IMG/VR virus record: IMGVR_UViG_3300042887_000598
Span: 5,921-69,920 of that record
Direction: 5' to 3' (one strand)
DNA length: 64,000 nucleotides
DNA from: a virus
Of the stretch, positions 6,501-50,825 are shown piece by piece. A model generated the notes under the pieces. That model did no database searches. It saw only the letters and a program-made list of their open reading frames with translations, and was not told the DNA's origin. Within the stretch, counting starts at the first letter, position 1, and each line of letters opens with the position of its first letter. Both the position numbers and the translations under genes were made by a program.

Positions 6501-7488
6501 AGCTTTCACTGCACGCTCCTCAGTTTCCGAAACGGCTGCTGGTACGGAGACTGTTTCCTCCCTCAGAACCCTGCGGCCAAGCATTGTTGAGACAGCGACA
6601 GCAACCGATACAGATTCAGCCAGATACAGCACCAACCCCGCCATTTCCGAGGCCGCATCCGGTGCAGACATCCCCAGCGCGGCAGCCACATTCCAGTCGC
6701 AGGTCACAGAAACTTCCGTAGCCCAAGACATTGTGCGCGGGTTCATGGTGGCGGCTGTACAGGTTTCGGAATCTGCCACCGGGTCGGATCAGATCAGCGC
6801 CCTCCGAGCTCTTGCTGCTGCGGTTGTGGAGACCGTGTCTGGCTCGGACGCAGTGTCAGCCAAGGCAGTCTTCCGGGGTATCTTGCAAGAGATCGCCACC
6901 CTGACAGACTCCGTTAATGCTCCGGGGTCCACCTACTCAGCACCGGTTATTGAGCTGGCAACGCTTCAAGACGCGGTACGGGCAGCAGCTACATTCCCCA
7001 CCGCCGTCATAGAAGCGGCCACCGGAACCGAGATCAACAGCGCAGCGTTTACACCGCTTGTCAGGATCGTCGAGACCGCAACCATCACAGACGTTGCGTC
7101 AGCCTTGGCTGCTTTCGCTGCACGGACGGCGGAGTCGGCCAACATCACCGACGAAGTGTCGCCTCCCGGCTCGATATACAACCCTGTGGTGCTGGCAGTT
7201 GCCCAACTTTTGGATCAGGTCAGCCCTGCTGGAAGCATCTACAACGCTCCGGTTCTGGAGTCGGCCACGATTGCGGACTCCCTGATTGGCGGGTTCCTGT
7301 GGAACCTGATCGATGATTCCCAAACGCCCGACTGGGGCGACATCAGCAACATACAGGCGGTATCGTGGGTTGTGGTAGCTGACAACCAGACCCCGAACTG
7401 GCAAAATGTCGGCAATACTCAAGGCACCGGGTGGACGCAGGTTAACACTGACGACGATCCAGACTGGCAATTAATATCCGCACCGTAA
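568..7488 (+). CDS. giant (2306 aa) Thr/Gly/Ser-rich tail fibre / adhesin-like virion protein
   Basis: Repeated modules starting YWVGGTG.W or TVYWNLAG..W with NFPLxQDTA; C-terminal ~600 aa of SETATxTD-type repeats; strong RBS. Confidence 0.8.
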   Translation: MDRFWVGGTGTWNTSSTTNWSATSGGGGGASVPTAADSVFFDQAGTYTVTMTGGLTCLDFTVSAGTVTFSGTGTPTISGSMSLITGTLWPATGFITFNATTTGKTVTTNGVSFAGYIIFNGIGGYWTLGSSLTSTSSTAFQIGGGTFDTGGYALTVFNINLSFAANTRAIKLNNSTVTLTGSGSAVFLSAGSNTLTFDAGTSQINITAAGNIANNSTSPAITLNFYNVAFTSTAAGTRSISGTNTFNNLSVTGPASAGLVTVTFDSRQTINGTLSTTGTAGNRRVFFASATYGISTDLVVNSAPSLTDADFRGLYVRGTAAPISGTRIGNRGECRGITFSTPKTVYWNLAGVQSWTANAWATTPTGTPSTDNFPLPQDTATFTNAGSVTGNISLGAVIGSIDMSGRTSAMTLALSTATVYGNWANGSGTTLTNAVTLTFSGGTTQTITSAGRTFSCGITIDTYGGTVQLADALNIGSQSLTVTNGTFATAGYAVTAGALSSNNSNVRTITLGSSTVSIIQFGVAFGTATNLTFNAGTSTIDLSGVGSGIAVGAGLTFYNVNFSYTASTGTSHSIAASGASCIFNNITVTTAPSAGIKTISIGVNQTITGTLTVAGASAVRRIFLRSDTIGTPRTLTVNAISATDCDFCDINLAGTASGASPTRAGNCGGNTGITFPAPKTVYWNLAGTQNWSATAWATGSGGTPAINNFPLAQDTAVFDNAGSADTVTINAVWNIGTFDASLRTSAMTLTISSSCVTYGDWKFGTGVTSAVTATLEFTKNGTQTITSNGVQFGCSLTINNPFGNVQLADALLLESTKGIVLARGTFDAVTYNVTTGLFSNGSTANTLRMGSGTWTLSGTGAVWNCATAPTLIASTSTIVLSNTSTTTRTFAGGGLYYNKLTIGGTTGISTLLLQGSNTFGELASTKTVAHTILFDSGSTNTFGKWSITGTAGNVVTLNSNAATIAYNFSIAGPANSGIDYLSVRDCLVSATSPGEFYVGANSTNVSNNTRVVFTATPAPRTLYWVGGTGNWSSTTKWDTTSGGGGGAAIPTSLDAVNFNSLSNATAYTATIDAGVTLARCASFTMAGPLTGNVTFAGTVGIAFHGNVSFAATGITRTYNGSMQWAGNSSYTFNTGGNLFSGSAVNVIGIGATWTLANSIFLAGNILTITYGTFDTSTSNYQITTGRLDSANRNIRSILLNGSTIISAALGGTTIQLAITTNLTFNAGTSTFSLQNGLAAISSGGLTFNNVSFTSTSASGITITGANTFNTLSFAGRTSVGITPVTFSADQTISTLTLNAGTASAYRTFLASDTIGTTRTLTVGTLTAGAADIDFRDITIAGAAAPISGTRFGDAKGNSGITFPAAKTVYWALATSNNWGSTGSGSWSATNGGSAAADQFPLAQDTAFIPFARPNNNQTITVNANYNIGTLDMNERNGSALVTLATGTTLSTVYGNWVNGTGTTLTGANLLTFAGRGTQTITSAGRTFTQFISVQSPGGNVLLGDALLCDGSGTSLRVNAGTFNANGYNVTLSSGGFSLSVVSTGSRNVNVGSGTWVLAGSSFIWDATALIGITVTGTGTINLTSASAKTFSGGSISYSGITLNQGGAGTLTISGNNTFKTITNTYSATGATTIALGATTQTLTQPWTATGEAGRVLTISGTSAASPGILRFTGAGQAANVDYLAINNVRAYNLTDTWYAGANSTNGGTLGWYFIAAGGTVYAVTITETGTGTDSITASITLLGSVSETGTGTDSFSAGLAYTGDITESGTVTDEVSARFLFLGAISENATGEDLTAAIMTALGNISETATGTDTDSANLTVTPAVSETATGTDTESARLSANSNISETATATDSVAALARLLAAVSEAATATDLTDSIKGLFAYIVESASITDALNAPGSTYNPSLSETATTTDSISALARFAVQVTESASITDATAAFKAYLAAILEAASGSDAVSPRYIANPAISETATGADTDAAAFTARSSVSETAAGTETVSSLRTLRPSIVETATATDTDSARYSTNPAISEAASGADIPSAAATFQSQVTETSVAQDIVRGFMVAAVQVSESATGSDQISALRALAAAVVETVSGSDAVSAKAVFRGILQEIATLTDSVNAPGSTYSAPVIELATLQDAVRAAATFPTAVIEAATGTEINSAAFTPLVRIVETATITDVASALAAFAARTAESANITDEVSPPGSIYNPVVLAVAQLLDQVSPAGSIYNAPVLESATIADSLIGGFLWNLIDDSQTPDWGDISNIQAVSWVVVADNQTPNWQNVGNTQGTGWTQVNTDDDPDWQLISAP

Positions 7489-7497
7489 GGAACACGT

Positions 7498-9405
7498 ATG
7501 ACAACAGGAAATACAACGCTGCTTGGTCTGGCTCTGCCAGTTGAAGGCGAGCTTGATGGCACATGGGGTGATGTTGTCAACGACTCGATTACCTCGCTGC
7601 TGGACTCCGCCATAGCGGGCACGACCACTCTGAGTGCGGATGCAGACGTTACCCTAACTACCACGGCCCTTGCAGCCAACCAAGCTCGTCAAGCGATTAT
7701 CTTGTGGAACCCGGCTTCGGGCACAGTGACCCGCAACATCACAGCTCCTGCGCAGTCTAAGATTTACACGGTGATTAACGCTTCGGGCGGAACGCAGTCC
7801 ATTGTTTTCCGTGGCGCAGGTCCAACGACAGGTGTAACCATTGTCAAGGGCGAGTCTGCTGTTGTTGCATGGAATGGCTCTGACTTTATAAAAGTCAGTT
7901 CGACTGGCGGCGCAGGTACTTTCACGAACCTGACCGTCACGGGCAACCTGACTGTCAACTCTCTGACCAACACTCGCGTACCCTACGCTTCGACTTCTGG
8001 CTTGCTGGTTGACTCCGCCAACATGACCTTCAATGGCACCCGCCTGACGGTTGCTGACCTTGCTGACTCTGGCCTGACCTCGGGTCGCGTGACATACGCA
8101 AGCACTGGCGGTGCGTTGGTGGATTCTGCAAACTTGACGTTTGACGGGACGACGCTGACCGCAAACGCTCTGACCACCACTTCCACAGTCACGATCAACG
8201 GCGGCACAGCCAACGGCGTGGCCTACCTCAATGGCTCCAAAGTTCTGACCACTGGGTCTGCGCTGACGTTTGATGGGACGACTCTTGGTATCTACAACGG
8301 CACTGCTGACGCGCAGCGGTTAAATCTTGGTACATCTGGAACAAACGCAGTTATTCAAGCAACACGGGCGTCTGGAACAGTGCCAAATATGATTTTCCAA
8401 ATTGACGCTGCCGAACAAATGCGCCTGACCAGCACAGGTCTGGGTATTGGGACGAGTTCGCCGGGGTACAAGCTGGATGTGAGTGTTGGAACAAACACAA
8501 TTGCACAGCAATGGCAGGGGGCGGGTACAAACTTCACCTTGCGCTTGAAATCTGGCAACGGCGCAACCCCTTCATCCTCAGTGTACCGCCTGTACATGGA
8601 TTACTTGAACGGCACTGCAACAAACAGCTACATTGATTTCTACCGTGGTAGCGGTGGTGCTGATGGGTACTTGGTTTTTGGTGCTTCTGGCGCTGACAAA
8701 ATGACTCTCGACTCCTCCGGCAACCTCGGTATTGGGACGAGTTCGCCTTCTGCAAAACTGCAAGTGGCAAATGGCAACATTTTGCTATCAAACGCCTACT
8801 ACCTTTCCGCACGGAACAACGCCAACACTTTGTCGATCAGCTTGATTGGTCGAAACACCAGCGATCAGGTTTTGATTGACCCAGATGGCTACGGCACGCT
8901 GATCGGTGCTGGCGGTGCGTTGAATTTGAATAGCGCAGGCAACCTCGGCTTGGGGGTTACTCCGAGTGGCTCTTGGGAACCTACTGTTAAAGCAATTCAA
9001 ATCTCCAATGCAGGCCAATATATTGCCAGTGGTTCCACTACTTTTAGCGGAGCAAACCAGTTTTGGTTGGGTAACAACGGGTATTTAAACAGTTCAGGAC
9101 AATGGATTTACTTGCGTTCTGTAGGCGCTTCTCAGTACAGGCAGTTTGACAACGAACACGCTTGGTTCACCGCCCCCTCCGGCACAGCAGGCAACGCTAT
9201 TAGCTTTACTCAGGCGTTAACCCTCACGGCGGCGGCAAACCTGTTGCTTGGTGGTACATCTGACCCCGGTGGTGCTTCTGTTTTGTATATTGCGAATGGG
9301 ACTGTCCCCGGAACACCTTCAGGTGGCGGCGTTATCTACGTAGAAGCTGGCGCTTTGAAATACAAAGGAAGTTCTGGCACAGTAACAACATTGGGGGCTG
9401 CATGA
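7498..9405 (+). CDS. tail fibre protein
   Basis: N-terminal [16 protein letters not shown] anchor; repeated [10 protein letters not shown]-type fibre motifs. Confidence 0.8.
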
Positions 9406-9887
9406 TTACCCAACAAGACGTAGCAGACTGCTTTGAGTACCGTGACGGGTACTTGTATTGGAAAGGCGTAAGTCATCCAAACAAACAGCACATGATGGAC
9501 AAACCTGCTGGCTCAATCCACAAGACGGGCTATCGGCATATTACATGGCGTGGCAAGGTTCAAAAGGCTCACCGCTTGATCTTTATGCTGCATCACGGCT
9601 ATCTACCACCAGAGGTTGACCACATCAATGGCGACCGTGCTGATAACCGCATTGAGAATCTACGACCAGCTACACGCAGCGAAAACCAATGCAACCGCAA
9701 CGCCTTGGCAAGCAACACATCAGGTTACCCCGGTGTGTCTTGGCATAAGGCCAGCAAAGCATGGCTTGTGCGTGTGATGAAAAACGGCAAGTCACATCTG
9801 ATTGGCTACTTCAAAGACTTGGAGTTAGCTGGACTTGTCGCAACCGAAGCACGCTCTTTGTATCACGGCGCTTACGCCAAATCTTAA
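9402..9887 (+). CDS. HNH homing endonuclease with AP2-like C-terminal domain
   Basis: AHRLIF...[23 protein letters not shown] then [10 protein letters not shown]. Confidence 0.9.
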
Positions 9888-23265: not shown

Positions 23266-26200
23266 ATGAGCGGACCATGGGAAAAATATCAAACTGGACC
23301 ATGGACCAAATACGCAGAGTCTGCCACCCAAGAAATTGCTGCGCCAGAACGTAAGTCCACCATCGGAAGTGAACTTGTCCGTGGTGGCAAGCAGTTGGTC
23401 TCCTCTATCCGCACTGGCGCTGGCGCTCTGACTGGTTCTCCCGAAGAAGCTGCTCTTGCTGGCGTTGCTCGCAGTCGTGCGATTGGCGAGGAAGCTGGCG
23501 AAGGCGCATCTTTTGAGGCTGTGAAGAAGGCTTACCAAGAGCGAGGCCTGCTGTCTGCCGCTGGCGAAGTGGCTGGTCAGATTCCCCGCGCTTTGGCGGG
23601 TCAGGTTCCGCAGTTGGCTGCAATGGCTGGAACTGCAAAGCTGGGCGCTATGGCTGGCGCTCCGCTTGGTCCTGTGGGCGCTATTGGTGGCGGCATTCTG
23701 GGGGCGGGCGCATCCCTGCTGCCTCAGTTCTTTGGCTCCAATATTGAGCGTCAGGCTGCCGAGCAGTTGGCAAGAGACGAGCAGGTCAAGATTGACCGTG
23801 GTGCCGCTGGCGCTGCGGCTGCCGGTCAGGCTGCGATTGAGGGTGCTGGTACGGCGTTTGTGTTGGGCAAGCGAATTGTCAAGGGCGTACTTGGTGTGGC
23901 AGATGACGCGGCCCTTGCAAGCGCCAAGGCTCAGCAGGCCATGACTAAAGCTGCCGAGCGCTCACTTGCTGCTGCGGCTGGTCGTGGCATTGCCAAAGGC
24001 GCTGCTGTTGAGATTCCTGTGGAGATTGCACAGAGCGTGCTCGAGCGTGCTCAGGCTGGCTTGGATGTCACATCCCCAGAGGCGTTGTCTGAGTACGGCG
24101 AAGTGGCATATCAGGCTGGTCTGGTTGGCGGCGCTATCGGCGCTGGCGCTGGCCCGGTGGATACGGCCATGGCACGTCAGGGCGTCAAGGCTCGCACTGC
24201 TTTTGAAGAGGCTGAAGCGAAGCGTTTGGCTGATGCCGAGCGTGCTCGACTTGAAGCTGAAGCTGCTGAGAGAGCCAAGATTCCTCCGTTGGCGCTTGGC
24301 GGTGAGGGCGCATTCACCCCTGTGGTTTTGCCTGATGGCTCGGTCGCCATGACCCGCGAGGAGCTGGCGCAGTACGAAGAGCAGCAGTTCCAGAAGAAGT
24401 ACGCAGCGCAAGCGGCTGACAAGAAACCAACACTGGCGCTTGGTGTTGGAGAGCCGTTCAAGCCTGTTGTGTTTCCTGATGGTTCGGTGGCAACCACACC
24501 TGAAGAGGTTGCCGCGTACGAGAAGCAGCAGTTTGAAGGCAAGTACAAGCCTCAACCCGTTCCACCTAAGCCCGTGTTTCAAGAGGAGCCTGTTGGCAAA
24601 TCCATTACCGGAACCAAGCCGCGCCTTGAGGCAAGACCTGCTGGCGGCGAGTTGGCCGGCATTATCTCTGGTCGCAGGGAGGCTGAAGAGGCGAAGGCTG
24701 AGATTCCTTTGGCTGATGATTATGCTTTCCTCCAGCGCGAGAAGCAGCGCCTATTGCAAGAGCCAAGCACCCCACAGATCAAGCAATTGATCCAACGGAT
24801 TGATGCTCGCATGGGTGAAGTTCTTACTCAGGACATTGAGCGCCAACGCGCAGAGGCTGAGGCTAAAAAGAGGCGCGAGCGGGCCGATGCAGAAGCCGCG
24901 AAGACCAGCGTGTTTGGGCGGGATGAATTGCCCCCAGTTGAGCGCCGTGAAGATGTTGTTGGTCAAGAGGCTTTGGCCAATCTGCAGGCAAAAGAAACTC
25001 CTGCTGAGATGACAGACTTTGAGTTGGCTCGCGCCAAGACTGTTCCACGCAAGCAGCCAAGACCAACCACCGAAGAAGATACGATTGCTGCTGAGCAAGA
25101 GAAGGAACTCAGAACCCTTCAAGCGGAGCGCAACAAGATCAAAGGCGGAGGAAATCTGTACCGCGCTCTTGAAGGTCAGCTCAACGCTTCTGAGGTCAAT
25201 GACATTTCTCCTGACATAAAGAAGCTCTACGGCAAGGGGTTCAAGCCTCTTGTCCGTCCCGGCGGTCAGGGCACAGACATATCCGAGCTTGTTGATGATG
25301 GCCTGCTCAACAACTTCTTGCCTGATGCAATGAAGAAGGGTGCTGAGAATTACGACGTGCAAGAGTCAGCCGAGTACATCAAGAACAAGTTGCGCACCAA
25401 GGATACAAGGGCTGAGGTATCCACCAAAAGAACTCGCGAGCTAGATGAAAAGATTTCGTATCTGAGTAACGTGGTGGGTGAGCGTGAGAGGGTTGCTAAA
25501 ACCCTTGCTGAGATCGAACCCGGCGAAGCTGCGACTATCGAGCGTGCTGTTGGCGATCAGGCTGTGGTCGAGACCACCGATCAAATCCGTTACAAGCGGG
25601 CCACTGGCAAGGTTGGCATCGGCAAGCAGGCTGTGCAGGACACCGTTGACGCAGTGAAGTCGCGCTGGGCCAATGCGCCCGAGGTGGTGGTTGCCGAGAA
25701 CATGGATGATCCAGCCATCCCGCAAGAGGTGCGTGACCACAACAAGGAAGCCATCGCCAAGGGCGCAAAGGGCAGTCCGCAGGGCTTCTACTACAAGGGC
25801 AAGGCATACGTCATCGCTGACTCCATTGGATCAACCAATGATGCTGTCGAGGCCTTGATGCACGAGGCTCTGGGTCACTTCGGCCTGCGTGGTGTGTTCG
25901 GCTCCAAGATGGAGGCTGTGCTGCGCGATGTGGTCAAGAATCGCCGCGCCGAGGTGGAGGCAAAAGCTAAGCAGTATGGCCTTGATCCAAAGAGCGACAA
26001 GGACATGCTTGAGGCTGCGGAAGAAGTGCTGGCTGTTATGGCTCAGACCAAACCCGGCCTGCCGTTCGTTAAGCGTGCCATCGCCATCATCCGCAACTTC
26101 CTGCGTGACCTCGGCTTTGACATCAAGATGTCCGATGCCGACATCATCCAGAAGTACATCCTGCCTGCTCGCGCTTTTGTGGAGAGTGGCAAGGGTCGAA

Positions 26201-29200
26201 CTGTTGAGGGTGGTGTTTCTGCTATGCGTGGGCAGCCCGCCCCAAGCTGGGTGCCGGAAAAAATCTGGAGACTGCATGAGCTTATGCAGCGTGCCGACGA
26301 CGAGGCTGAGGGTCGCGTTCCCTTGCGAGAAAGTGAGCAAGGTAAAGTGCCAACTTCTGGTGCCCTCAAGCGAAACCAAACAATGACTTTCCGACGCTTA
26401 AATGCTGCGGTTGATGAGTATGTTGGCGGCGATTATCAGAAGTCGATGGACTTGATGACTCGCATGAATGAAGAGTCAAACCGTCGGGCAGATGAGGTTG
26501 AGAGCAGGCCTGCCGCTATGCGTGGCGAGGCTCCAAAGACTGGCCGAGCCACCGAGGCATTTGACCGCTGGTTTGGCAACAGCAAGGTGGTGGATGAGAG
26601 TGGAAATCCTCTGGTGGTTTCTCACATCACCAAGGTCAAGGGCATCAATGTATTCGATCCAAATTACAAGACCGAGCTATCGAGCATGGGCTTTCATTTT
26701 GGGAGTAAAGACCAAGCTGAGTTTCGTGGCAAGCAGTACGACTTTAAGTCCAAGGGTGAGCCGGAGGTTGGTCAGTATTACCTGTCAATAAAGAACCCAC
26801 TGCGTGTTTCTCACATGGCGTCTTATGCCCCAGATCATCTTGCTGACCAGATGATGGATATGGGTGTGTTGGATGAAGATGCATACGCCGACATCCAATC
26901 AGAAGCAAAGTATGACTCGGTTGAAACGGGTGATCGACTTGTCAACATTCTCAAAGACCAAGGTTATGACGGTCTTGTGTATGAAAACGAGAAGGAGGGC
27001 GAGGGCGATTCTTTCGTGCCCTTTGAACCCACTCAAATCAAATCCGCCACCGGAAACATCGGCACCTACGATCCAAAAAATGCCGACATCCGCTACAGCC
27101 GCCAGAACATCAAAGGCCAGCCCATTCTCGCGCAGTGGACCACGCCCACAGACACCAAGCTGTACGGTGATACCAACAAGGACGACATCATCTATTCTTT
27201 GCAGAACAAGATGATCGACACCAAGCGCGTGGTGGACGCCATTTCCGCGACCGCTGGCAAGATCATGGCGAAGTGGAATCCGTACCTGCAAGAAGAGCTT
27301 TTCCACGGTCGCACCGCGAAGCAGACTGGTGACTTTCTCAAGAAAGAATTGCGCCCTCTCATGCAAGATATGAGCGCCCGTGGCGTGAACATCAAGGACT
27401 TCGAGGAGTACCTGCACAACCGTCATGCCGAGGATTACAACAAGCACGTAGCCAAGATCAACCCGAATATGCCCGATGGCGGCTCCGGCATTGATACCGC
27501 CGATGCTCGCGCTTACCTCAAGAGCTTGACGCCGCAGCAGAAGGCCGACTTTGAGGCGCTTGCCAAGCGGATGGATGCCATCAACAAGGGTACTCGTGAA
27601 GTGCTGGTTGAGGGCGGGCTTGAAACCCGCGATCTGATTAACCAGTGGGAGAAGACGTTTCCCTTTTACGTGCCGCTCAAGCGTGATGACTTGGATTATG
27701 CCTACACCGCTGGCGGCATGGGCACTGGTCAGGGCTTCGATGTGCGCGGCAACTTCAGCCGCCGTGCGACAGGCTCCGAGCGCAATGTCGTTGACATCTT
27801 GGCCAACACCGCCATGCAGCGAGAGCGTGCCATCATCAAGGCCGAGAAGAACCGTGTGGCTCAGGCCATGTTTGGCTTGGCCGTGCAAAGCCCCAACCCA
27901 GACTTCTGGCTGCCGATTGATCCGATGGCGGAGGTCGATCCTGCTGCTGCGCAAGACCTGCTGAGCTTCGGCTTGTCGCAGCAAGACTTGGACTTCCTAA
28001 TGAAGGAGCCACGTCAGAAGGCCGTGGACAAGAACAGTGGTCAAGTGGTTGAGCGCATCAATGCCACGCTGCGTAACAACGAGAACGTAATGTCGATGCG
28101 CTTCAATGGGCGTGATCGGTACGTGTTCTTCAACCCAAACAATCCTCGCTCAAAGAGGATGATCTCATCCCTCAAGAACTTGGATGCCGATCAGCTTGGC
28201 TACATCCTCGGGAACCTGTCAAAGGTCACCCGCTGGTTTGCTTCGGTCAACACGCAGTACAACCCGATCTTCGGTGCGTACAACTTCTTGCGCGACGTAC
28301 AAGGCGCTGCGCTGCAGTTGAGCGACACACCCCTTGCCAAGGACAGAAAGGCTGTTGTAAGTGGCACTCTGCCAGCCCTGAAGGGCATTTACTCCGCCTT
28401 GCGTGCTGAGCGCGATGGTCAAGTGGTGAACACCCCGTGGGCCAAACTGTGGAATGAGTTCCAAGAAGAGGGTGGGCAGACTGGTTTCCGTGATCAGTTC
28501 AGCCGTTCGCAGGAGCGTGCAGAGGCTCTTGAGAAAGAGCTGAAGATGGTCACCGAAGGAAAGCTGAAGTCTGCTGGCCGCGCAACGCTTGACTGGTTGA
28601 GCGACTACAACGACTCGATGGAAAACGCTGTTCGCCTGTCTGCCTACAAGGCGGCGTTGGATCGCGGCATCAACAAGCAGGAGGCTGCATCCATCGCCAA
28701 GAACCTGACAGTGAACTTCAACCGCAAGGGCCAGATCGCTGTTCAGGCTGGCGCGTTGTACGCCTTCTTCAACGCCGCTGTGCAGGGTACGACTCGCTTG
28801 GCTCAGACCCTGCGTGGCCCTGCCGGCAAGAAGATCATGGCTGGCGGCTTGCTGCTTGGCACGATGCAGGCTGCGCTGCTGGCCGCTGCCGGGTTCGATG
28901 ACGAGGAGCCACCAGAGTTTGTGCGTGAGCGGAACTTGATCCTGCCTATCGGTGGCGATAAGTACCTGACATTCCCCATGCCTCTGGGCTACCACGTCAT
29001 CCCAAGCACAAGCCGCATCATCACCGAGTGGGCGCTGTCTGGATTCAAGGACACAGGGGACCGCATCGCTTCGCTGACTGGCATGTTCCTTGAGGCATTC
29101 AACCCCATCGGTAACGCAGGCTGGTCCGCTCAGACCTTGGCCCCGACCTTTGCAGACCCCATCGTGGCGCTCACGGAGAACCGCGACTGGACTGGAAAGC

Positions 29201-29805
29201 CGATTGCCAAAAAGGATTTTGCAAACACCGATCCAACACCGGGCTACACGCGGGCCAAGGACACGGCAAGCTGGTTCTCTACGCAGTTGGCAAAGTTTTT
29301 GAATTACGCATCTGATGGAACCGAATTCCAGCCGGGCGTCCTGAGTCCAACTCCAGATCAGATCGACTACCTGATTGGTCAGGTGACTGGCGGTATTGGT
29401 CGAGAGCTTTTAAAGGCCGAGCAGACCATTACAAAGACTGCGACTGGTGAAGAGCTGCCGCCTTACAAGATTCCTGTGGTTGGCCGTTTCTATGGTGAGA
29501 CCAAGAGCTCTGCTGCTGAGTCCAATAGGTTCTACAAAAACTTGACCGAGTTAAACAAACTGGAAAACGAGATCAAAGGTCGTCGCGAAAAAAGGCAACC
29601 GATTGGGGATTTCCTCAAAGAAAACCCAGAGGCTCGTCTTGCACCAATGGCGCGAAAGACGCAGGAGGATATCCAGAAGCTACGCAAGCGCAAAGAGCAA
29701 CTGCTTGAGCGTGACGCGCCTCGTGAGTCAATCAAGCAGGTTGAGCTCATGATGACCAAGAAGATGCAGGCCTTCAATGCTCGGGTCGAGGCTGCAAAGG
29801 AGTGA
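23266..29805 (+). CDS. large polyvalent virion protein (zincin-like HExxxH peptidase, ART-like domain, LPD38-like C-terminus)
   Basis: 2179 aa; LMHEALGHFGL; FDRWFGNSKVVDESGNPLVV...GYDG...FEPTQIKSATGNIGTYD; C-terminal TVNFNRKG...LYAFFNA...NRDWTGKPI. Confidence 0.75.
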   Translation: MSGPWEKYQTGPWTKYAESATQEIAAPERKSTIGSELVRGGKQLVSSIRTGAGALTGSPEEAALAGVARSRAIGEEAGEGASFEAVKKAYQERGLLSAAGEVAGQIPRALAGQVPQLAAMAGTAKLGAMAGAPLGPVGAIGGGILGAGASLLPQFFGSNIERQAAEQLARDEQVKIDRGAAGAAAAGQAAIEGAGTAFVLGKRIVKGVLGVADDAALASAKAQQAMTKAAERSLAAAAGRGIAKGAAVEIPVEIAQSVLERAQAGLDVTSPEALSEYGEVAYQAGLVGGAIGAGAGPVDTAMARQGVKARTAFEEAEAKRLADAERARLEAEAAERAKIPPLALGGEGAFTPVVLPDGSVAMTREELAQYEEQQFQKKYAAQAADKKPTLALGVGEPFKPVVFPDGSVATTPEEVAAYEKQQFEGKYKPQPVPPKPVFQEEPVGKSITGTKPRLEARPAGGELAGIISGRREAEEAKAEIPLADDYAFLQREKQRLLQEPSTPQIKQLIQRIDARMGEVLTQDIERQRAEAEAKKRRERADAEAAKTSVFGRDELPPVERREDVVGQEALANLQAKETPAEMTDFELARAKTVPRKQPRPTTEEDTIAAEQEKELRTLQAERNKIKGGGNLYRALEGQLNASEVNDISPDIKKLYGKGFKPLVRPGGQGTDISELVDDGLLNNFLPDAMKKGAENYDVQESAEYIKNKLRTKDTRAEVSTKRTRELDEKISYLSNVVGERERVAKTLAEIEPGEAATIERAVGDQAVVETTDQIRYKRATGKVGIGKQAVQDTVDAVKSRWANAPEVVVAENMDDPAIPQEVRDHNKEAIAKGAKGSPQGFYYKGKAYVIADSIGSTNDAVEALMHEALGHFGLRGVFGSKMEAVLRDVVKNRRAEVEAKAKQYGLDPKSDKDMLEAAEEVLAVMAQTKPGLPFVKRAIAIIRNFLRDLGFDIKMSDADIIQKYILPARAFVESGKGRTVEGGVSAMRGQPAPSWVPEKIWRLHELMQRADDEAEGRVPLRESEQGKVPTSGALKRNQTMTFRRLNAAVDEYVGGDYQKSMDLMTRMNEESNRRADEVESRPAAMRGEAPKTGRATEAFDRWFGNSKVVDESGNPLVVSHITKVKGINVFDPNYKTELSSMGFHFGSKDQAEFRGKQYDFKSKGEPEVGQYYLSIKNPLRVSHMASYAPDHLADQMMDMGVLDEDAYADIQSEAKYDSVETGDRLVNILKDQGYDGLVYENEKEGEGDSFVPFEPTQIKSATGNIGTYDPKNADIRYSRQNIKGQPILAQWTTPTDTKLYGDTNKDDIIYSLQNKMIDTKRVVDAISATAGKIMAKWNPYLQEELFHGRTAKQTGDFLKKELRPLMQDMSARGVNIKDFEEYLHNRHAEDYNKHVAKINPNMPDGGSGIDTADARAYLKSLTPQQKADFEALAKRMDAINKGTREVLVEGGLETRDLINQWEKTFPFYVPLKRDDLDYAYTAGGMGTGQGFDVRGNFSRRATGSERNVVDILANTAMQRERAIIKAEKNRVAQAMFGLAVQSPNPDFWLPIDPMAEVDPAAAQDLLSFGLSQQDLDFLMKEPRQKAVDKNSGQVVERINATLRNNENVMSMRFNGRDRYVFFNPNNPRSKRMISSLKNLDADQLGYILGNLSKVTRWFASVNTQYNPIFGAYNFLRDVQGAALQLSDTPLAKDRKAVVSGTLPALKGIYSALRAERDGQVVNTPWAKLWNEFQEEGGQTGFRDQFSRSQERAEALEKELKMVTEGKLKSAGRATLDWLSDYNDSMENAVRLSAYKAALDRGINKQEAASIAKNLTVNFNRKGQIAVQAGALYAFFNAAVQGTTRLAQTLRGPAGKKIMAGGLLLGTMQAALLAAAGFDDEEPPEFVRERNLILPIGGDKYLTFPMPLGYHVIPSTSRIITEWALSGFKDTGDRIASLTGMFLEAFNPIGNAGWSAQTLAPTFADPIVALTENRDWTGKPIAKKDFANTDPTPGYTRAKDTASWFSTQLAKFLNYASDGTEFQPGVLSPTPDQIDYLIGQVTGGIGRELLKAEQTITKTATGEELPPYKIPVVGRFYGETKSSAAESNRFYKNLTELNKLENEIKGRREKRQPIGDFLKENPEARLAPMARKTQEDIQKLRKRKEQLLERDAPRESIKQVELMMTKKMQAFNARVEAAKE

Positions 29806-34040: not shown

Positions 34041-34945
34041 TAGATTTCTCCTTGAGTTGGCTTGGTTGAAAGATACTTTTTATGCTGCGAACAAAATGCA
34101 GCGACTTGGCAAAACCCTTCGCAGCGTGTGCGTGCGCCGGGCCTGTGCTCGATGAGGAAGGTTTCACCCTTCTTTGCTTTTTCGTTGGCCTGAGCCAGTG
34201 CGCGTTCGGCGTCTTCTCGTTTCTCGTGGACGCTCTTAGCCCTGACTCCGCCATCCTTTTTCACAGCAAAGTATTCAGGCTTCTCCCACATCTCTTCTGG
34301 CGTGCATTCCGCGACATCACTGCCCACCTCAATGTCGAAGAAGGCTGACTCCTGCAAGTGGATGCGCTGCTTGATGTATTCGTCTTGGCGCTCCACCGGC
34401 CACAGAGGGATGTCGATCACCACGATGGGTGCCTTGGGGTATCCCTCGCGTCCAGTGTCGCGGCGTGCCCAGTCACGGACGATGGCAACGATCTGCAGCT
34501 TCTTGACTGTCACGCCCTTGGCCTTGTGCAGCAAGTAAGCGTAGCAGTTCAACTGGTTGTGCCAATCTTGCTTTTCATTCATGACGGTCCATGCACCAAC
34601 AGTTTTATAGTCCGACAAAACAACGCCATCCTCATGCACCTCTTGCAGATCAATTGCACCAGAGATGTTCATGCCGCCAATTTGGATGTGTATGCGCTCT
34701 TCAACAATGTGGTTTTCATCCTTACCGTGCTCAAGAATGTTATGGATGGCTGTTCCAAAAATTGACCAAACCATGTCCGAAGAATCTTCTTCCAGTTCGT
34801 CCCAGTGCCTTCTTTTTAGCTGGACAATTCTTGGGCTCGTCATAAGCTCCGTGACTGACAAGTTTGCTTTCCCTTTTGAATATTGCGGCCTTTTTAGGAC
34901 ATTCAAAATTGTTTCTGGAAGCCCGTGTTTATTGGTCAACTTCAT
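34040..34945 (-). CDS. PD-(D/E)XK (Cas4/RecB-like) exonuclease
   Basis: SVTEL..PR, GTAIH..LE, ISGAIDL...DYKT, QLNCY, C-terminal RC..FC.VA.FC; in an operon with ERF and SSB. Confidence 0.85.
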   Translation of the reverse strand: MKLTNKHGLPETILNVLKRPQYSKGKANLSVTELMTSPRIVQLKRRHWDELEEDSSDMVWSIFGTAIHNILEHGKDENHIVEERIHIQIGGMNISGAIDLQEVHEDGVVLSDYKTVGAWTVMNEKQDWHNQLNCYAYLLHKAKGVTVKKLQIVAIVRDWARRDTGREGYPKAPIVVIDIPLWPVERQDEYIKQRIHLQESAFFDIEVGSDVAECTPEEMWEKPEYFAVKKDGGVRAKSVHEKREDAERALAQANEKAKKGETFLIEHRPGARTRCEGFCQVAAFCSQHKKYLSTKPTQGEI

Positions 34946-35639
34946 CTTTTTTCTCCTTCTGTTTTGCCAAAAACGCCAGCCTTGATTGGCGCATTTTTTC
35001 TCTTGCCTCCGGGGTGTATCTGTACCCTGTTTTTGACCAAGATAGCTTTGTTCTCATCGTCTCTGATTTTGGTTTTCCCATGTGAGCTTTTGAAAGTTTT
35101 TCTTTGTGCTCATCTGTGAGCTTCACGCCCTTTTTTGAGGCAATCATTTTTGCCATTGCTTCCGGGTTTACGCTAACGTGCTTCGCCATCATTGCTGCCT
35201 TTACGTGACTCAGCATTGGCCTGCCCTTGTTTGGCGACGGCTTACCGAACAGAGGATGGTTTTCCCCTTTCATGCGTTCGGAAATTTTTTTCCTAAATTC
35301 TGGAGATTGGCTTTGCTGCCTAATTCGCGCAACATGCTTTTCGTATTGCTCTGGCGGCATTTTCCTTCCAGAGTTTCCCTCGCCTCCGTTCGTCATATTG
35401 GTAAGGCGGCACCCCATGTCTTTGAAGCATAAGATCAAAAATTTCTCATGCTCAAATGCCTCTTGCTCGGTGTTCCACCCTGCGCAAATCTCAACAACTT
35501 TTCCATGCTTGTTTGCAACGCTCTTCCAAAAATTGCTTCGACCGGACGCGGTCCTTGCTCGCGTAATGCTTCCTTTGCCGACATAAAAAACAGAGCCGTC
35601 ATCCGCCTGACGATGGATGTATGTGTAGAAGAGTTTCAT
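34929..35639 (-). CDS. GIY-YIG homing endonuclease with NUMOD3 repeats
   Basis: YTYIHR...FYVGKG, LTNMTNGGEG, HPLFGK, EHKEKLSKAHMGK; likely start MKLFYTY. Confidence 0.85.
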   Translation of the reverse strand: MKLFYTYIHRQADDGSVFYVGKGSITRARTASGRSNFWKSVANKHGKVVEICAGWNTEQEAFEHEKFLILCFKDMGCRLTNMTNGGEGNSGRKMPPEQYEKHVARIRQQSQSPEFRKKISERMKGENHPLFGKPSPNKGRPMLSHVKAAMMAKHVSVNPEAMAKMIASKKGVKLTDEHKEKLSKAHMGKPKSETMRTKLSWSKTGYRYTPEAREKMRQSRLAFLAKQKEKKDEVDQ

Positions 35640-36001
35640 TTTGCTCTTCCCATTTCTGCTGCTGCGCGGACGATGGCTAGGCGGGTTGCGGCGTAAGGGT
35701 TTTTTCCGTGCGGCACTACACACCGCATTTGATGCTGGATTTCATTTAAGTAAAAAACGACAGCCTCTTTACCGACTTCCGTGTATCCCCGGCTAACAAT
35801 CAAATCCAACCTCACCGCCAGTCGTAGCGCATCGCCATCGTCTGTGAGGGGGTCAAACCATCTTCTAGGCCATTCATCTGCTTTTGTCATGAAGCCAATA
35901 AATCGGTTATCACCTTGCTTGGTTACGTTGTCTATCTGCATGGGGATGATTTCAACGCCAGCCGCCTTTGCAGCCAGTTCCAATAGTTCTTTGTCAGTCA
36001 T
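35636..36001 (-). CDS. conserved phage hypothetical protein
   Basis: ELLELAAKAAG...FDPLTDDGDALRLAV...ATRLAIVRAAAEMG. Confidence 0.75.
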   Translation of the reverse strand: MTDKELLELAAKAAGVEIIPMQIDNVTKQGDNRFIGFMTKADEWPRRWFDPLTDDGDALRLAVRLDLIVSRGYTEVGKEAVVFYLNEIQHQMRCVVPHGKNPYAATRLAIVRAAAEMGRAK

Positions 36002-36234
36002 CCTTCACGCTCCATCGCCATGGTCTGCTTGTGTACTGCCATGAACAGGCTCACTACGTCGTGCAAGCTCATGCCCATTGCGGATGTGTATTGCGACAGC
36101 ATGATGGCTACTGCGGTGGCTGCTGTGCCGCCAGTGTGGTCTGCGTCGTCAAGGATCAGTGGACCAAACTTGTTGGAAATCTGAATCGCTCTGACAAGAA
36201 TTGCTATCTCGTCTTTTCTTTCGTCTTCAGTCAT
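35998..36234 (-). CDS. hypothetical protein
   Basis: 78-aa ORF with GGAGG RBS, overlapping both neighbours. Confidence 0.6.
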   Translation of the reverse strand: MTEDERKDEIAILVRAIQISNKFGPLILDDADHTGGTAATAVAIMLSQYTSAMGMSLHDVVSLFMAVHKQTMAMEREG

Positions 36235-36706
36235 TGCTTCCTCCTAATGCGTTTTGAAGCTCTTTGTTCTTCACCTTCATCATTCCGGCGAGCATGGAAA
36301 TCTTTGCTTGCGCATCTGCGTTCTTTGCCCTGCCGGAGTCAGTCAACATCTCTGTCTTTGTGAAGCTGACGGACATGGCCATCTTCTTCATCTCACGACC
36401 GATTGCCTTGATGCCAGTGTCCACCGCGTACTGGGTCTGAGACTCCGGCTCAATGATCACGTAAGAGCCTTTGTTGTCGGACGCCAAGAGCATGCAGTGC
36501 GCTGTCAACAAGATGTCCTTAATCTCTGATGTGCATTGCAAGAGCTCGAGGTCATGCCGACGGACATCCTCAATACTCTCCGGTGGCTTCACATTGCAAA
36601 GCTCGGCGATGCGCTTTCTGCTGATGGTGCTACCGTAGGTGATGCCCTCATCAATCAGAACCTTGACGGCCTGCTTCCAAGCCGGGAACAGTGTTGTCTC
36701 TTGCAT
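36227..36706 (-). CDS. partner protein of the RAMP-like gene (possible winged-helix plus coiled coil)
   Basis: 159 aa; start overlaps the RAMP-like stop (TGATG); YGSTISRKRIAELC...NKGSYVII. Confidence 0.7.
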   Translation of the reverse strand: MQETTLFPAWKQAVKVLIDEGITYGSTISRKRIAELCNVKPPESIEDVRRHDLELLQCTSEIKDILLTAHCMLLASDNKGSYVIIEPESQTQYAVDTGIKAIGREMKKMAMSVSFTKTEMLTDSGRAKNADAQAKISMLAGMMKVKNKELQNALGGSND

Positions 36707-37275
36707 CAGACGAACTCCACATTGAAGCGGCCAAAACGTGGGCGATAGTCACCCAAACCAATGAGAGCTCCAGCATCTTGCACGGCCTTCTTCACCTCGT
36801 TGATGTTGACCACTTCCTCGTTGACAACGATGGTTGCGTTCAGTGACCACTTGCGCAGGATGGGGCGGTAGCGCATGATCTTTGCCATGCCAACCTTGAC
36901 GCCACGGCAGTCAACGTGCTCTGGGTCATTCCAAAGTTGCTCAGGTGTTTTCTTTTCGTAGCCTGTGAATACAAGATCATCCTCCAGCACCTGCACGCCT
37001 TGCTTGAACTTCACGCCGAGCTTTTGCATCTTGGCTGCGGCGATCAGGCACGCATCAAGGTTTTGTGCTGGCAAGAAGAAGCCAACATCCTTGCGCCAGT
37101 AGCAGCCGCCGATGAACTCACTGCGTGCGATGGCGGTGTGGTCGTCGTCTGTTTTCTTGCGTTTGCTGGTCAGCTCTTTGTGAGCCTTGGCAAGTGGGTC
37201 GAGCGGGTTTGCGAAACGGTCCGAGTGCATGAGCAAAGGGGCCTTACCTGTCAGTTGAACTGCGATTGTTTTCAT
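36706..37275 (-). CDS. stand-alone Cas7/RAMP-like RNA-binding protein (Vipr-like effector)
   Basis: 189 aa from ATG 37275 (AAGGAAAAC RBS). N-terminal strand VQLTGKAPLLMH; FLPAQNLDACL resembles RAMP IPGSSLKG; C-terminal Gly-rich loop IGLGDYRPRFGRF. Motif-level recognition only. Confidence 0.75.
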   Translation of the reverse strand: MKTIAVQLTGKAPLLMHSDRFANPLDPLAKAHKELTSKRKKTDDDHTAIARSEFIGGCYWRKDVGFFLPAQNLDACLIAAAKMQKLGVKFKQGVQVLEDDLVFTGYEKKTPEQLWNDPEHVDCRGVKVGMAKIMRYRPILRKWSLNATIVVNEEVVNINEVKKAVQDAGALIGLGDYRPRFGRFNVEFV

Positions 37276-37295
37276 GATGTTTTCCTTGGTTAATT

Positions 37296-37862
37296 GATGC
37301 ACGCTTTGCATCGAGATGACACCTCATTGAAGTGTCATAACGCTACATCAGCCCTCGCCGCGCCACTCCCGGCCTTTCCGTTTCACGCCGTGCCTTGCCA
37401 GTTGGTGTTGCCACCGAGGTGAGCTCTCATTGAAAACTCACGACGCTGTAAACAGCCCATACCGCGCCGGTCCTTTGCCCGCCCAGCCTGACCTGTGCTT
37501 GCCGATCCTCTTGGTGTTGCCACCGAAATAGTTCCTCACCGAAGAACCATCACGCTGTTAACAGCCCAAGCCGCGCCTCTCCAATCCTTGCCTCTCCGGG
37601 TCTCGCCCATGCTCTGCACGTCTTGCCTTTGCGGTCCAGTGCTCGGATAGCACTCAGAAAGATTTCTCCTTCTGGCTGTTATCAGCCCTAGCCAGTCCCG
37701 ACCTCGCCATGCCTTTCCTAGTCACGCTACGCAATGCCGTATGGTGTTACCACCGAAATGACTTCTTCTCAAAAGCCATCCCACTGTTAACAGCCCCTGT
37801 CATGCCGTTCCCTTGCAAACCCGGCCTAGCCTAGGCCAGAGAATCAATTATCAGGTAGGTTG
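37296..37862 (-). ncRNA. array of five putative guide RNAs: (triplet+NN)n pentamer tracts separated by three-hairpin linkers (VIPR-like)
   Basis: No ORF >=60 aa in 37312-37812. Five tracts with strict 5-nt period (37355-37399, 37459-37508, 37568-37637, 37689-37738, 37797-37833), each ending GGGCTG on the minus strand; GGTG-GNAA-CACC hairpin in three linkers. Confidence 0.85.
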
Positions 37863-37868
37863 GACTCG

Positions 37869-37898
37869 ATTGTATCTGCTATATATCAGGTTCGTCAA
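37869..37898 (-). promoter_or_regulatory. sigma70-type promoter for the array and RAMP operon
   Basis: Minus strand TTGACG (37898-37893), 18 nt, TACAAT (37874-37869). A divergent TACAAT at 37906-37911 lies in an ATTGTATC/GATACAAT inverted repeat. Confidence 0.65.
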
Positions 37899-37945
37899 CA
37901 GCCGATACAATATATTTTCAAATTATTTTCATAAGGACAAACCCT

Positions 37946-38230
37946 ATGAGACGAGCCGCCCGAAGAGACGACAACGAGCAGGAGATCATCAAGGCCATGC
38001 GTGCCGAGGGTGCGTATGTGAAGGTGATCAATGACGAAGGGCTGTTTGACTTGCTGGTGAGCCACCGTGGCGAGACTTTGCTGGTCGAGGTGAAGGACGG
38101 CTCGAAGCCACCATCGGCCAGACGGCTGACGGAGGCGGAGCAGAAGTTCCATGACGAGTGGCCGGGATCAGACCTGTACATCGTGAACAGTGTGGAAGAG
38201 GCCATTGCCCTGCTGCGCACTTGCGGCTAA
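37946..38230 (+). CDS. VRR-NUC / Holliday-junction-resolvase-like PD-(D/E)XK nuclease
   Basis: RAARRDDNEQEI...FDLLV...LVEVKDGSK...LTEAEQKF. Confidence 0.8.
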   Translation: MRRAARRDDNEQEIIKAMRAEGAYVKVINDEGLFDLLVSHRGETLLVEVKDGSKPPSARRLTEAEQKFHDEWPGSDLYIVNSVEEAIALLRTCG

Positions 38231-38270: not shown

Positions 38271-38300
38271 ACCCCCACCTCAGACGTGGGGGTTTCTTTC
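38271..38300 (+). terminator. rho-independent terminator
   Basis: ACCCCCAC-ctcagac-GTGGGGGT followed by TTCTTTC. Confidence 0.6.
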
Positions 38301-39920: not shown

Positions 39921-40306
39921 GTGTTCTTCTCCTTGAGTTTGGCTTCGATGGCTCGGGCGACTTCTGTAAAAGACAGCATTGCCGCACCAAGCGGAACACA
40001 AGCTTTTTCAATCTCCTCATCCGTCAGCCCAACCCATTGCCGCTGTGCTGCGGGTGGGGTGGTGTAAACGGGGCCAATCTTTTGATGCCGTGGGTTGTTC
40101 TTCTCAAAACCCCACTCGACTTGCTGAACATCGACAACCGTAGTCAGGCCCGTTTCCTCGTGCTGAAACAGGTAGCCAAAAGGCTCCTGCACAGGTGCTG
40201 GCTGCGAAGGCAAGCTGTGATACTCATGCGGCCCCGGCCCCCAGTCCTCTCGCACAGGCTCATAGTCCAGCCCCAACTCACGTTTAGATTCTGGAAAATT
40301 GTCCAT
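39917..40306 (-). CDS. hypothetical modular protein
   Basis: APVQEP...PVYTTPP...WVGLTDEE...IEAKLKEKNT. Confidence 0.6.
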   Translation of the reverse strand: MDNFPESKRELGLDYEPVREDWGPGPHEYHSLPSQPAPVQEPFGYLFQHEETGLTTVVDVQQVEWGFEKNNPRHQKIGPVYTTPPAAQRQWVGLTDEEIEKACVPLGAAMLSFTEVARAIEAKLKEKNT

Positions 40307-40772
40307 GAAGTTCTCCTGATGCCTTGGTGTATGCCGAATGTGCTTCTTCAGCAGTACTGAAATAACCCAAACATTTTTGCTTGCCAAGCACTCGAATATT
40401 GGCAATGAATTTTTTATCTCTTTTATGAAAAATTACACCCTTAAAACCCAACTTGTTATTTGCTTGAACACCCCTATTCATGCCATTTGTTGAATGTGTT
40501 GCTGGGCGTAAGTTTTCAATTCTGTTGTCGCTTTTATTGCAGTTAATGTGGTCAAGCTGTTCAGGCAAATTTCCATAAACATACAACCAAGCCAATCTAT
40601 GAGCCTGATGTATTTTTTGAAAAATTTTGATGCGGACATACCCACGTGAATTTATGGTTCCCGCTTTATCCCAAGACTTCATTTTTGGTGTGCATACTTT
40701 GCGCCAATAAAAATCACCCGTTTCTTTGTCGTACCAAAGAAATTCTTTAAGTGCTTCTTGTGTAATTTCCAT
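40284..40772 (-). CDS. HNH homing endonuclease with AP2 domain
   Basis: AHRLAWLY...[17 protein letters not shown]...LGYFSTAEEAH; AT-rich relative to flanks. Confidence 0.9.
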   Translation of the reverse strand: MEITQEALKEFLWYDKETGDFYWRKVCTPKMKSWDKAGTINSRGYVRIKIFQKIHQAHRLAWLYVYGNLPEQLDHINCNKSDNRIENLRPATHSTNGMNRGVQANNKLGFKGVIFHKRDKKFIANIRVLGKQKCLGYFSTAEEAHSAYTKASGELHGQFSRI

Positions 40773-50367: not shown

Positions 50368-50825
50368 GGTTTAGGCTCCTTTGGTTGTGGTGGCTGCGAC
50401 AAACTTTCCCCGGCGGGTCACTGTGGCGCGGTCGTAGCAGTGAGCCCATTGCAGGGCGTTCTTGAGCGTGAGCGAGTGGTGCACCTTGTCGAATCCGTGG
50501 CCTTGGGTCTGGTAACCGAAGGTTCGGGCGATGATGGTGCGGATATGGTCGGCTGTGGTCATGTGGTGGGCTCCGTTTGTGCCCGGCGCTGTGGCCGGGC
50601 GGGGTTGGTCAATATCCTTCGGCGAAGTCTTCAAGGCTGGTCACCAGTCCGTCAAAGTCTTCATCCGGGCCGAGTAGGTCGGCGAGTGTGTGGACAATCT
50701 CGCGGGGATATTCCTCGCACAGTGTTTCGAGATAGTCGGCGCGGTCGGTGTAGCCGTTGTTTGTGTATGCGTTTTTCATGGTGTGGGCTCCAGTTGGTGC
50801 CCGGTGGTTAGCCGGGCGGGTTGGT

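Follow-up and report, generated by a model that had tools for sequence, protein, structure and literature searches.

A probable type II-like VIPR locus in an uncultured lake-water phage, with guides predicted to match recombinase active-site segments

A 64,000-nucleotide stretch of an uncultured virus (positions 5,921 to 69,920 of the 69,920-bp IMG/VR record IMGVR_UViG_3300042887_000598; the whole stretch is called the window) carries on its minus strand a locus that we identify, with a probability of about 0.9, as a VIPR (Viral Interference Programmable Repeat) system most like the published type II, the carrier being a ~70-kb tailed lake-water phage. VIPR is already in print (three 2026 bioRxiv preprints) and the locus is not a new kind of system. 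Seven VIPR types are described, of which type II is exemplified by phage SUSP1 and a P. fulva prophage; a RAMP protein, Vipr, is encoded together with a vap gene, and the guide RNAs (vrRNAs) carry a conserved tail after 9-16 YNNGG repeats (10.64898/2026.04.26.720920). The same work established a 1-nt-skip rule for DNA recognition as well as transcriptional repression, and the filament and R-loop-triplex structures of the SUSP1 system are reported in 10.64898/2026.04.26.720927. The type II assignment proposed here derives solely from homology to the Vipr and vap1 proteins of SUSP1.

In the direction of the minus strand the locus comprises a sigma-70-like promoter, a short leader, five non-coding units, a 189-aa gene and a 159-aa gene. 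The first-pass annotation, made from the letters of the sequence, had already delineated the promoter, the five units and the 189-aa gene, and all of these were found where it had placed them:

37869..37898, minus strand: sigma-70-like promoter TTGACG-18-TACAAT of the array and operon, 10/12 consensus matches
37739..37836, minus strand: vrRNA 1, tract 37836-37797 of 8 units, tail from GGGCTG at 37796
37638..37738, minus strand: vrRNA 2, tract 37738-37689 of 10 units, divergent tail 37688-37638
37509..37637, minus strand: vrRNA 3, tract 37637-37568 of 14 units, tail 37567-37509
37400..37508, minus strand: vrRNA 4, tract 37508-37459 of 10 units, tail 37458-37400
37290..37399, minus strand: vrRNA 5, tract 37399-37355 of 9 units, tail from 37354
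36706..37275, minus strand: vipr, encoding a 189-aa RAMP/Cas7-like protein, by homology to SUSP1 Vipr and by AlphaFold2 and Foldseek
36227..36706, minus strand: vap1-like gene of 159 aa, by homology to vap1; its start overlaps the vipr stop (ATGA)

The product of vipr identifies the locus. The sole sequence match in the PDB is the chain 36pp_D, "SUSP1 Vipr protein" (E=1.4e-44, residues 1-188), and the protein also matches phrog_4652 (6e-67); Pfam has no family for either the 189-aa Vipr or the 159-aa vap1-like protein. A large protein collection contains 625 relatives of Vipr, nearly all unnamed, and a tblastn search found homologues in 130 phage records, Medea1 (58% identity) and LESphi2 (46.6%) among them; the listed coliphage, Shigella and Salmonella phage records reach at most 39%, the value for SUSP1. 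The motifs PLLMH, LPAQNL and GLGDYRPRFGRF, from which a RAMP protein had been suspected, are all present in the open reading frame (ORF) at 36706-37275. An AlphaFold2 model built with 45 homologues has a predicted local distance difference test score (pLDDT) of 91.8 and a predicted template-modelling score (pTM) of 0.83, and in this model the protein adopts a Cas7/Csm3-like RAMP/RRM fold with a thumb and a glycine-rich loop. Foldseek against the PDB returned 84 chains at E<=0.001, with type VII Cas7 and type III-A Csm3 leading at a probability of 1.00 (template-modelling score about 0.5, identity 11-16%); the comparison with Cas7 and Csm3 that the first-pass annotation had put forward thus bears out the RAMP fold.

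In SUSP1 Vipr, the residues that grip G1 and G2 of the guide unit and clamp the DNA are H17, K33, R39, K82, R138, D177, W178 and R179 (10.64898/2026.04.26.720927). All eight positions align with the protein of the window, as H17, K33, R39, K82, R137, D176, Y177 (W178 in SUSP1) and R178. Among the 45 homologues (58-86% identity) H17, K33, K82, R137 and R178 are invariant, while at residue 176 there are 33 with D and 12 with E. Different residues line the pocket for the third scaffold letter, Q71, N72 and I172 here versus E71, M72 and C173 in SUSP1, where the pocket is said to exclude purines (10.64898/2026.04.26.720927). By analogy with SUSP1, the Vipr of the window should polymerise on the pentamer tracts described below.

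Vipr had been taken for a "solo" Cas7/RAMP protein with no other cas genes nearby. The second half of that statement stands, with no cas gene among the 64 ORFs of the window scanned against PHROGs; the first does not, because of the overlapping vap1-like gene. Its 159-aa product is a weak homologue of SUSP1 vap1 (BLASTP, 24% identity, E=6e-6), matches the product of the gene that follows vipr in LESphi2 (28%, E=4e-25) and in Medea1 (28%, E=8e-13), and hits phrog_5926 at 3.6e-16. It is predicted to bind DNA.

The five non-coding units are built on a strict period of five. GGGCTG anchors at 37796, 37688, 37567, 37458 and 37354 (spacing 108, 121, 109 and 104 nt) mark the starts of five tails, and the anchors are preceded by 7-8, 10, 14, 10 and 9 pentamers in unbroken phase, in agreement with the 7-14 per unit counted earlier; the example string quoted at that time is unit 5. 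Each pentamer consists of a scaffold triplet and two free letters (NN). Those of vrRNA 1 read TA TA CG TT AG AC AT AG, with a further CT supplied by the first pentamer of the tail, and those of vrRNA 2 read AT GT GT TA AA AT GA CG CT TA; in vrRNA 3, five of the 14 units have degenerate scaffolds (GCAAA, GACGT, GCAGA, GCATG, GACCC). With a tract caller that requires a minimum of 7 units, of which 75% or more must begin with GG, the 611-nt array region yields 5 tracts versus a mean of 0.025 in composition-matched local Markov surrogates, none of 1000 of which reaches 5; the whole 69,920-bp contig yields 6 versus a mean of 0.17 and a maximum of 2 in 100 surrogates. G is autocorrelated at 0.24 for lag 5 and at 0.20 for lag 10; among lags 1-12, the remaining ten do not exceed 0.064. 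A 10-unit run at 50506-50555 (plus strand) has 7 GG units, no tail motif and a position inside the ORF 50440-50811, and is probably a chance occurrence. Set to at least 5 units and 70% GG, the caller recovers the published vrRNAs of SUSP1, one upstream and three downstream of vipr; the VIPR authors' own caller asks for at least 4 units, and 664-667 VIPR loci are catalogued in the VIPR preprints. The VIPR systems with GGY/NN RNAs to which the first-pass annotation had likened the locus do exist in print, and the tracts fit the published vrRNA anatomy (10.64898/2026.04.26.720920).

The scaffold is GGH rather than GGY. The 499 GG units of the clade have C (248), A (136) or T (115) as their third letter and never G; in the window it is A in 8 of 26 units, and in SUSP1 it is T in 22, C in 3 and G in 2.

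A unit had been described as the pentamer tract alone; each unit is in fact a tract capped by a structured tail of ~51-65 nt. An alignment of 44 tails, the window's five plus 39 distinct tails of relatives, has as its consensus a long interrupted hairpin, in which 9 of 15 pairs are maintained through two-sided changes; the outer pairs are uninformative on covariation because they are nearly invariant. For the five tails of the window, folding energies lie between -22 and -24 kcal/mol and z-scores between -3.3 and -5.4 (vrRNA 1: -23.9 kcal/mol, z -5.4). Four of them conform to the consensus hairpin, although that of vrRNA 5 departs from it at the 3' end, where it has a distinct hairpin that stops just before the vipr ribosome-binding site and is conserved at the vipr-proximal position in the related loci L014, L017, L018 and L019. 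The tail of vrRNA 2 keeps the first ~14 consensus letters and then forms two different hairpins, three hairpins of its own in all. Homologues of guide 2 in L013 and L015 bear the standard tail. A pseudoknot is reported in the tails of the SUSP1 clade. Rfam, at a permissive threshold, has no relevant family at the locus.

Relatives were collected by protein-based scans, which gave 7 loci from genome assemblies and 48 viral contigs (46-97% identity), 55 loci in all. Rhodoferax, Burkholderiaceae, Methylotenera and Betaproteobacteria appear in the titles of the assembly records, one of which carries the label Cyanobium. At least one pentamer tract, usually 2-8, lies within 1 kb upstream of vipr on the same strand in 50 of the 55; of the remaining five, three have downstream tracts and two have no upstream DNA. 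In one relative, L045, the five upstream tracts are joined by four more (12-21 units), which form a second array 1.2-1.6 kb upstream of vipr and on the other strand. The number and content of the arrays vary even among loci whose Vipr proteins are 95-97% identical. L013, L015 and L018 share the NN of guides 1 and 2 (L013 and L018 those of guide 1), with scaffold letters that differ at several units. Such a pattern would be expected if a target kept the NN, rather than the scaffold, under selection.

That one subunit binds each pentamer, gripping the triplet and presenting NN for gapped pairing, had been surmised from the window and is reported for SUSP1 by cryo-EM (10.64898/2026.04.26.720927). 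The 1-nt-skip geometry, which the first-pass annotation missed along with the vap1-like gene and the structured tails, makes targets predictable. Guides were converted to NN-x-NN-x patterns (1-nt skip), as is the practice of the VIPR authors. The first nine NN of guide 2 (18 letters) occur exactly in at least 119 viral contigs, and all 119 matches listed encode IVVYKIDRL followed by [ST]R[SA], with the skipped bases varying as synonymous wobble. Two target ORFs that were examined carry the Pfam domains Resolvase, Recombinase and Zn_ribbon_recom. The target ORFs of at least 300 aa (n=76) have a median pairwise identity of 55% and form 25 clusters at 70% identity, the target loci range from 36 to 72% GC, and 33 of the 50 largest target records belong to the provirus class. 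Control patterns of 18 letters from guides 1, 4 and 5 gave 1, 0 and 0 viral matches, and 16-letter patterns (8 units of guide 5 and of guide 3) gave 7 and 9. Among 301 genomes of the family of one Rhodoferax-labelled Burkholderiales assembly, two contain the guide 2 pattern, in the same gene, and none contains the reversed control. Further guides of the relatives match the serine-recombinase motif TRKSTDEGLE at 18/18 positions.

Of the 20 metagenome matches of guide 1, 11 lie at the C-terminal catalytic end of a tyrosine integrase and, on the opposite strand, read GHKSLMVLKRYY (motif SLMVLKRYY); the one integrase examined matches Pfam Phage_integrase at 2e-25 and phrog_1 at 1.5e-63. The longer version of guide 1 in L013 fits the integrase at 20/20 positions. 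Four of the 20 matches look like chance, and five lie at the start of a 121-122 aa ORF (in the sequences labelled L242, L248, L250, L258 and L259) that begins MVLKRYYTNG and, in L248, belongs to no Pfam or PHROG family. It may be a genuine second target located at the start of a gene, or else a single chance match present in several copies. We take IVVYKIDRL to be the active-site strand of the serine enzymes and SLMVLKRYY to be the catalytic-tyrosine motif of the integrases.

Guide 3 fits less exactly. Of its 30 informative positions, 24 agree with PKKVDWDQAKLAALV of a phrog_2480 gene, the first seven units exactly (maximum of 22 in 100 shuffles), and the site is present in 3 of 14 serine-recombinase proviruses, in one of which (G375) it lies ~3 kb from the recombinase. 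The guides of L021 and L024 match the same phrog_2480 site. The 14-unit pattern of guide 3 with up to 3 mismatches was absent from the 50 target records; the nine exact matches of its 8-unit pattern were set aside, none scoring above 23/30 and none lying in the phrog_2480 gene. For guide 4 the exact 10-unit and 9-unit patterns gave no viral match, and with up to 3 mismatches two matches were obtained in the 50 records of relatives, both in unrelated bacterial genes and judged to be chance because ~0.6 is expected by estimate. The 9-unit pattern of guide 5 gave no match; its 8-unit pattern gave seven, a chance-like number with no common gene. On 14 whole proviruses guides 1, 4 and 5 stayed within the null.

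Guides of two relatives point to another gene: those of L018 (23/26) and L017 (21/26) match LGMGRSTYYLLRK (L243:1916-1953, plus strand) in a small gene ~0.7 kb downstream of the targeted tyrosine integrase. We do not call this gene an excisionase, its similarity to AlpA/HTH_17 being below the Pfam cut-offs (E about 0.005).

We propose the following mechanism. A single promoter would drive a leader with the five vrRNAs, then vipr, the vap1-like gene and a set of recombination genes. Each vrRNA would be a run of 5-nt units (GG, then C, A or T, then two free letters) with a ~51-65 nt tail, and by homology with SUSP1 Vipr one protomer would occupy each unit, with the GGH triplet buried and NN presented. 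The resulting filament would pair with DNA as NN-x-NN-x, skipping every third base, and block transcription. Guide 2 would then spell IVVYKIDRL of the large serine recombinases, guide 1, on the opposite strand, SLMVLKRYY of the tyrosine integrases, and guide 3 would be directed, less exactly, to the phrog_2480 gene of the serine-recombinase proviruses that guide 2 targets. The likely role would be to silence, during infection, the genes by which resident prophages or satellites integrate and excise, preventing their mobilisation or parasitism. For the lake-water phage, every step from transcription and vrRNA processing through filament assembly to DNA binding and repression would follow by analogy with SUSP1.

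Because the skipped base is the wobble position of a codon, a guide would in effect spell a peptide, and because only codon positions 1 and 2 are read, one guide could recognise the catalytic-core motif of a whole recombinase family. We give even odds to the broader proposal that the guides are peptide-motif probes, a broad-spectrum weapon against prophage and satellite mobilisation that covers both serine and tyrosine chemistries and uses a relaxed GGH scaffold, a scaffold that the SUSP1 protein appears not to accept.

Several observations weigh against the identification as a working VIPR with these targets. On the side of the targets, (i) the target loci of guide 2 were chosen by the skip-1 pattern itself and so are uninformative on other skip rules; (ii) exact targets were rare in the sole bacterial family sampled (the 2 of 301 genomes above); (iii) the five guide 1 matches at the start of the 121-122 aa ORF concern a gene unrelated to integrases; (iv) the guide 3 match amounts to only 80%; and (v) guides 4 and 5 have no target. 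On the side of the RNAs, GGA makes up 27% of the GG units of the clade, and guides 1-3 contain nine units with non-GG scaffolds (GCC, GCA, GAC, TGC, AGC); in SUSP1, where the vrRNA mutations tested include GGY>AGY, GAY, GGA and AAY, perturbation of the GGY motif abolished silencing (10.64898/2026.04.26.720920). The tail of vrRNA 2 resembles none of the other 43 tails. Finally, the sole record from an RNA library (wastewater run X24) consists of contigs of a ~90% relative, which span vipr and parts of the array; they are not counted as evidence of transcription because they extend upstream of the promoter and may stem from DNA carry-over.

Part of this evidence would also fit a decaying relic, in which Vipr is intact, most guides are eroded and no silencing is left: the degenerate scaffolds of guides 1-3, the unique tail of guide 2 and the lack of targets for guides 4 and 5 are what erosion would leave. 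We consider such a relic improbable, given that the contact residues of Vipr are invariant in 45 homologues at 58-86% identity, that the NN of guides 1 and 2 are kept in relatives through scaffold changes, which implies selection, that matches to recombinase motifs are exact at 18/18, and that 23 DNA runs from lake or pond water contain the phage, twelve of them being possible sources of the sequence.

A working VIPR that regulates the phage's own or the host's genes instead of competing elements is, in our estimate, slightly less probable again. The array does head the early recombination operon of the phage. On the phage's own 69,920-bp contig, however, no guide scored above shuffled guides at skips of 0, 1 or 2 and no self-target was found, the best 1-nt-skip scores of all five guides falling within the shuffled-guide null; a skip of 3 finds the array itself, as expected, and skip rules other than 1 nt were compared on this contig only. 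Moreover, the two exact guide families match integrases and recombinases of proviruses, the class of 33 of the 50 target records, and the two bacterial matches of guide 4 lie in unrelated genes at about the chance number. As to the tracts being no guides at all, but a chance G-rich leader or a structured RNA unrelated to the protein, the silence of Rfam and of Tandem Repeats Finder (0 rows in the array, because the pentamer units are too variable) would agree with it, and we give it next to no credence in view of the period-5 statistics, the architecture common to 50 of 55 related loci, the recovery of the published SUSP1 vrRNAs by the caller and the codon-phased exact targets. A VIPR directed at the recombinases of competing elements is the reading that we retain.

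By its letters the promoter is no excess, the shuffled region yielding a mean of 1.4 such sites; its hexamers and the leader behind them are conserved in L014, L017, L018 and L019. The -10 hexamer is covered by one arm (37869-37880) of a 12-nt inverted repeat (92% complementary) whose other arm lies just upstream of the -35 (37900-37911); this repeat may be an operator of the VIPR promoter. Divergent from this promoter is a 94-aa ORF (37946-38230, plus strand) with a sub-threshold Pfam match to pPIWI_RE_REase (E=0.12) as its only similarity and no PHROG, followed by a terminator-like hairpin at 38271-38293. Past the vap1-like gene the operon continues with a 78-aa ORF, a phrog_5086 gene, a homing endonuclease gene (34929-35723, minus strand, phrog_314) and genes for an exonuclease, Erf, SSB and an endonuclease. 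The sole CRISPR-labelled secondary match is to a RecB/Cas4-like phage exonuclease (34040-34945), and no CRISPR-type repeat-spacer array, as CRISPR-Cas class 1 would call for, was found in 37250-37950.

Elsewhere in the window the PHROGs scan found terminase, portal and head genes. The phage looks lytic because no integrase was found among the 64 scanned ORFs. Two HNH endonuclease genes of phrog_99 lie at 9402-9887 (plus strand) and 40284-40772 (minus strand), and two giant ORFs at 568-7488 (plus strand, 2306 aa) and 23266-29805 (plus strand, 2179 aa); in the second, the C-terminal 870 residues match phrog_14770 (4e-243).

The first descriptions of VIPR date from 2026, with its biology demonstrated in Escherichia phage SUSP1 and a Pseudomonas prophage. 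The present locus would carry the logic of SUSP1 (filament, pentamer code and codon-phased recombinase targets) into an uncultured lake-water phage whose Vipr homologues occur on Betaproteobacteria-labelled assemblies. New here are the in-silico targets obtained under the 1-nt-skip rule and the predicted extension of VIPR logic to tyrosine integrases. The locus may also serve to provide natural test cases for the tolerance of A at scaffold position 3 and for the variation permitted in the tail.

Compared with the class 1 Cas7 subunits (type III-A Csm3 and type VII Cas7), the Vipr of the window shares the RAMP/RRM fold in its model, and Cas7 likewise polymerises on a guide RNA with a fixed period. 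Sequence identity is 11-16%, and in contrast to class 1 systems the window has neither a repeat-spacer array in 37250-37950 nor other cas genes among the 64 ORFs scanned; the period is 5 nt instead of 6, and VIPR pairing, as reported, is gapped and involves 2/3 of the target bases, whereas that of class 1 Cas7 is near-contiguous. The closest named homologues of vipr are those of the Pseudomonas phages Medea1 (MW862109.1, 58%) and vB_Pae_LESphi2 (OQ594955.1, 46.6%), whose vipr-vap loci are annotated only as hypothetical proteins. LESphi2 resembles the window in having its three vrRNAs upstream of vipr, and one of the three tails (L002:2265) starts with the letters of the window's standard tail; Medea1, unlike the window, has just one vrRNA, which follows vipr. 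The published Pseudomonas fulva prophage VIPR probably stands near these two loci.

The system that the locus resembles most is the type II VIPR of SUSP1 (NC_028808.2). It differs from that system in placing all five vrRNAs between a single promoter and vipr (in SUSP1 one precedes vipr and three follow it), in a third scaffold letter that is C, A or T with a changed pocket (mostly T in SUSP1), in a tail that is a long hairpin of different sequence, including one aberrant copy, and in predicted targets that include tyrosine integrase besides serine recombinases. The likenesses extend over the whole system: the two Vipr proteins are homologues from end to end (39% identity, E about 1e-44 to 1e-47), vap1 shows weak homology (24% identity, E=6e-6), the RNAs are ~100 nt long with 5-nt GG-phased units, free NN and a structured 3' tail, and the carrier is a phage, apparently lytic. 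According to 10.64898/2026.10.15.759431, vrRNA4 of SUSP1 silences the excision recombinase of a satellite, with a codon-phased footprint in the catalytic domain of this catalytic-serine enzyme. The predicted target in the window is, as reported for vrRNA4, the active-site segment of a recombinase, in codon phase and with the wobble base skipped.

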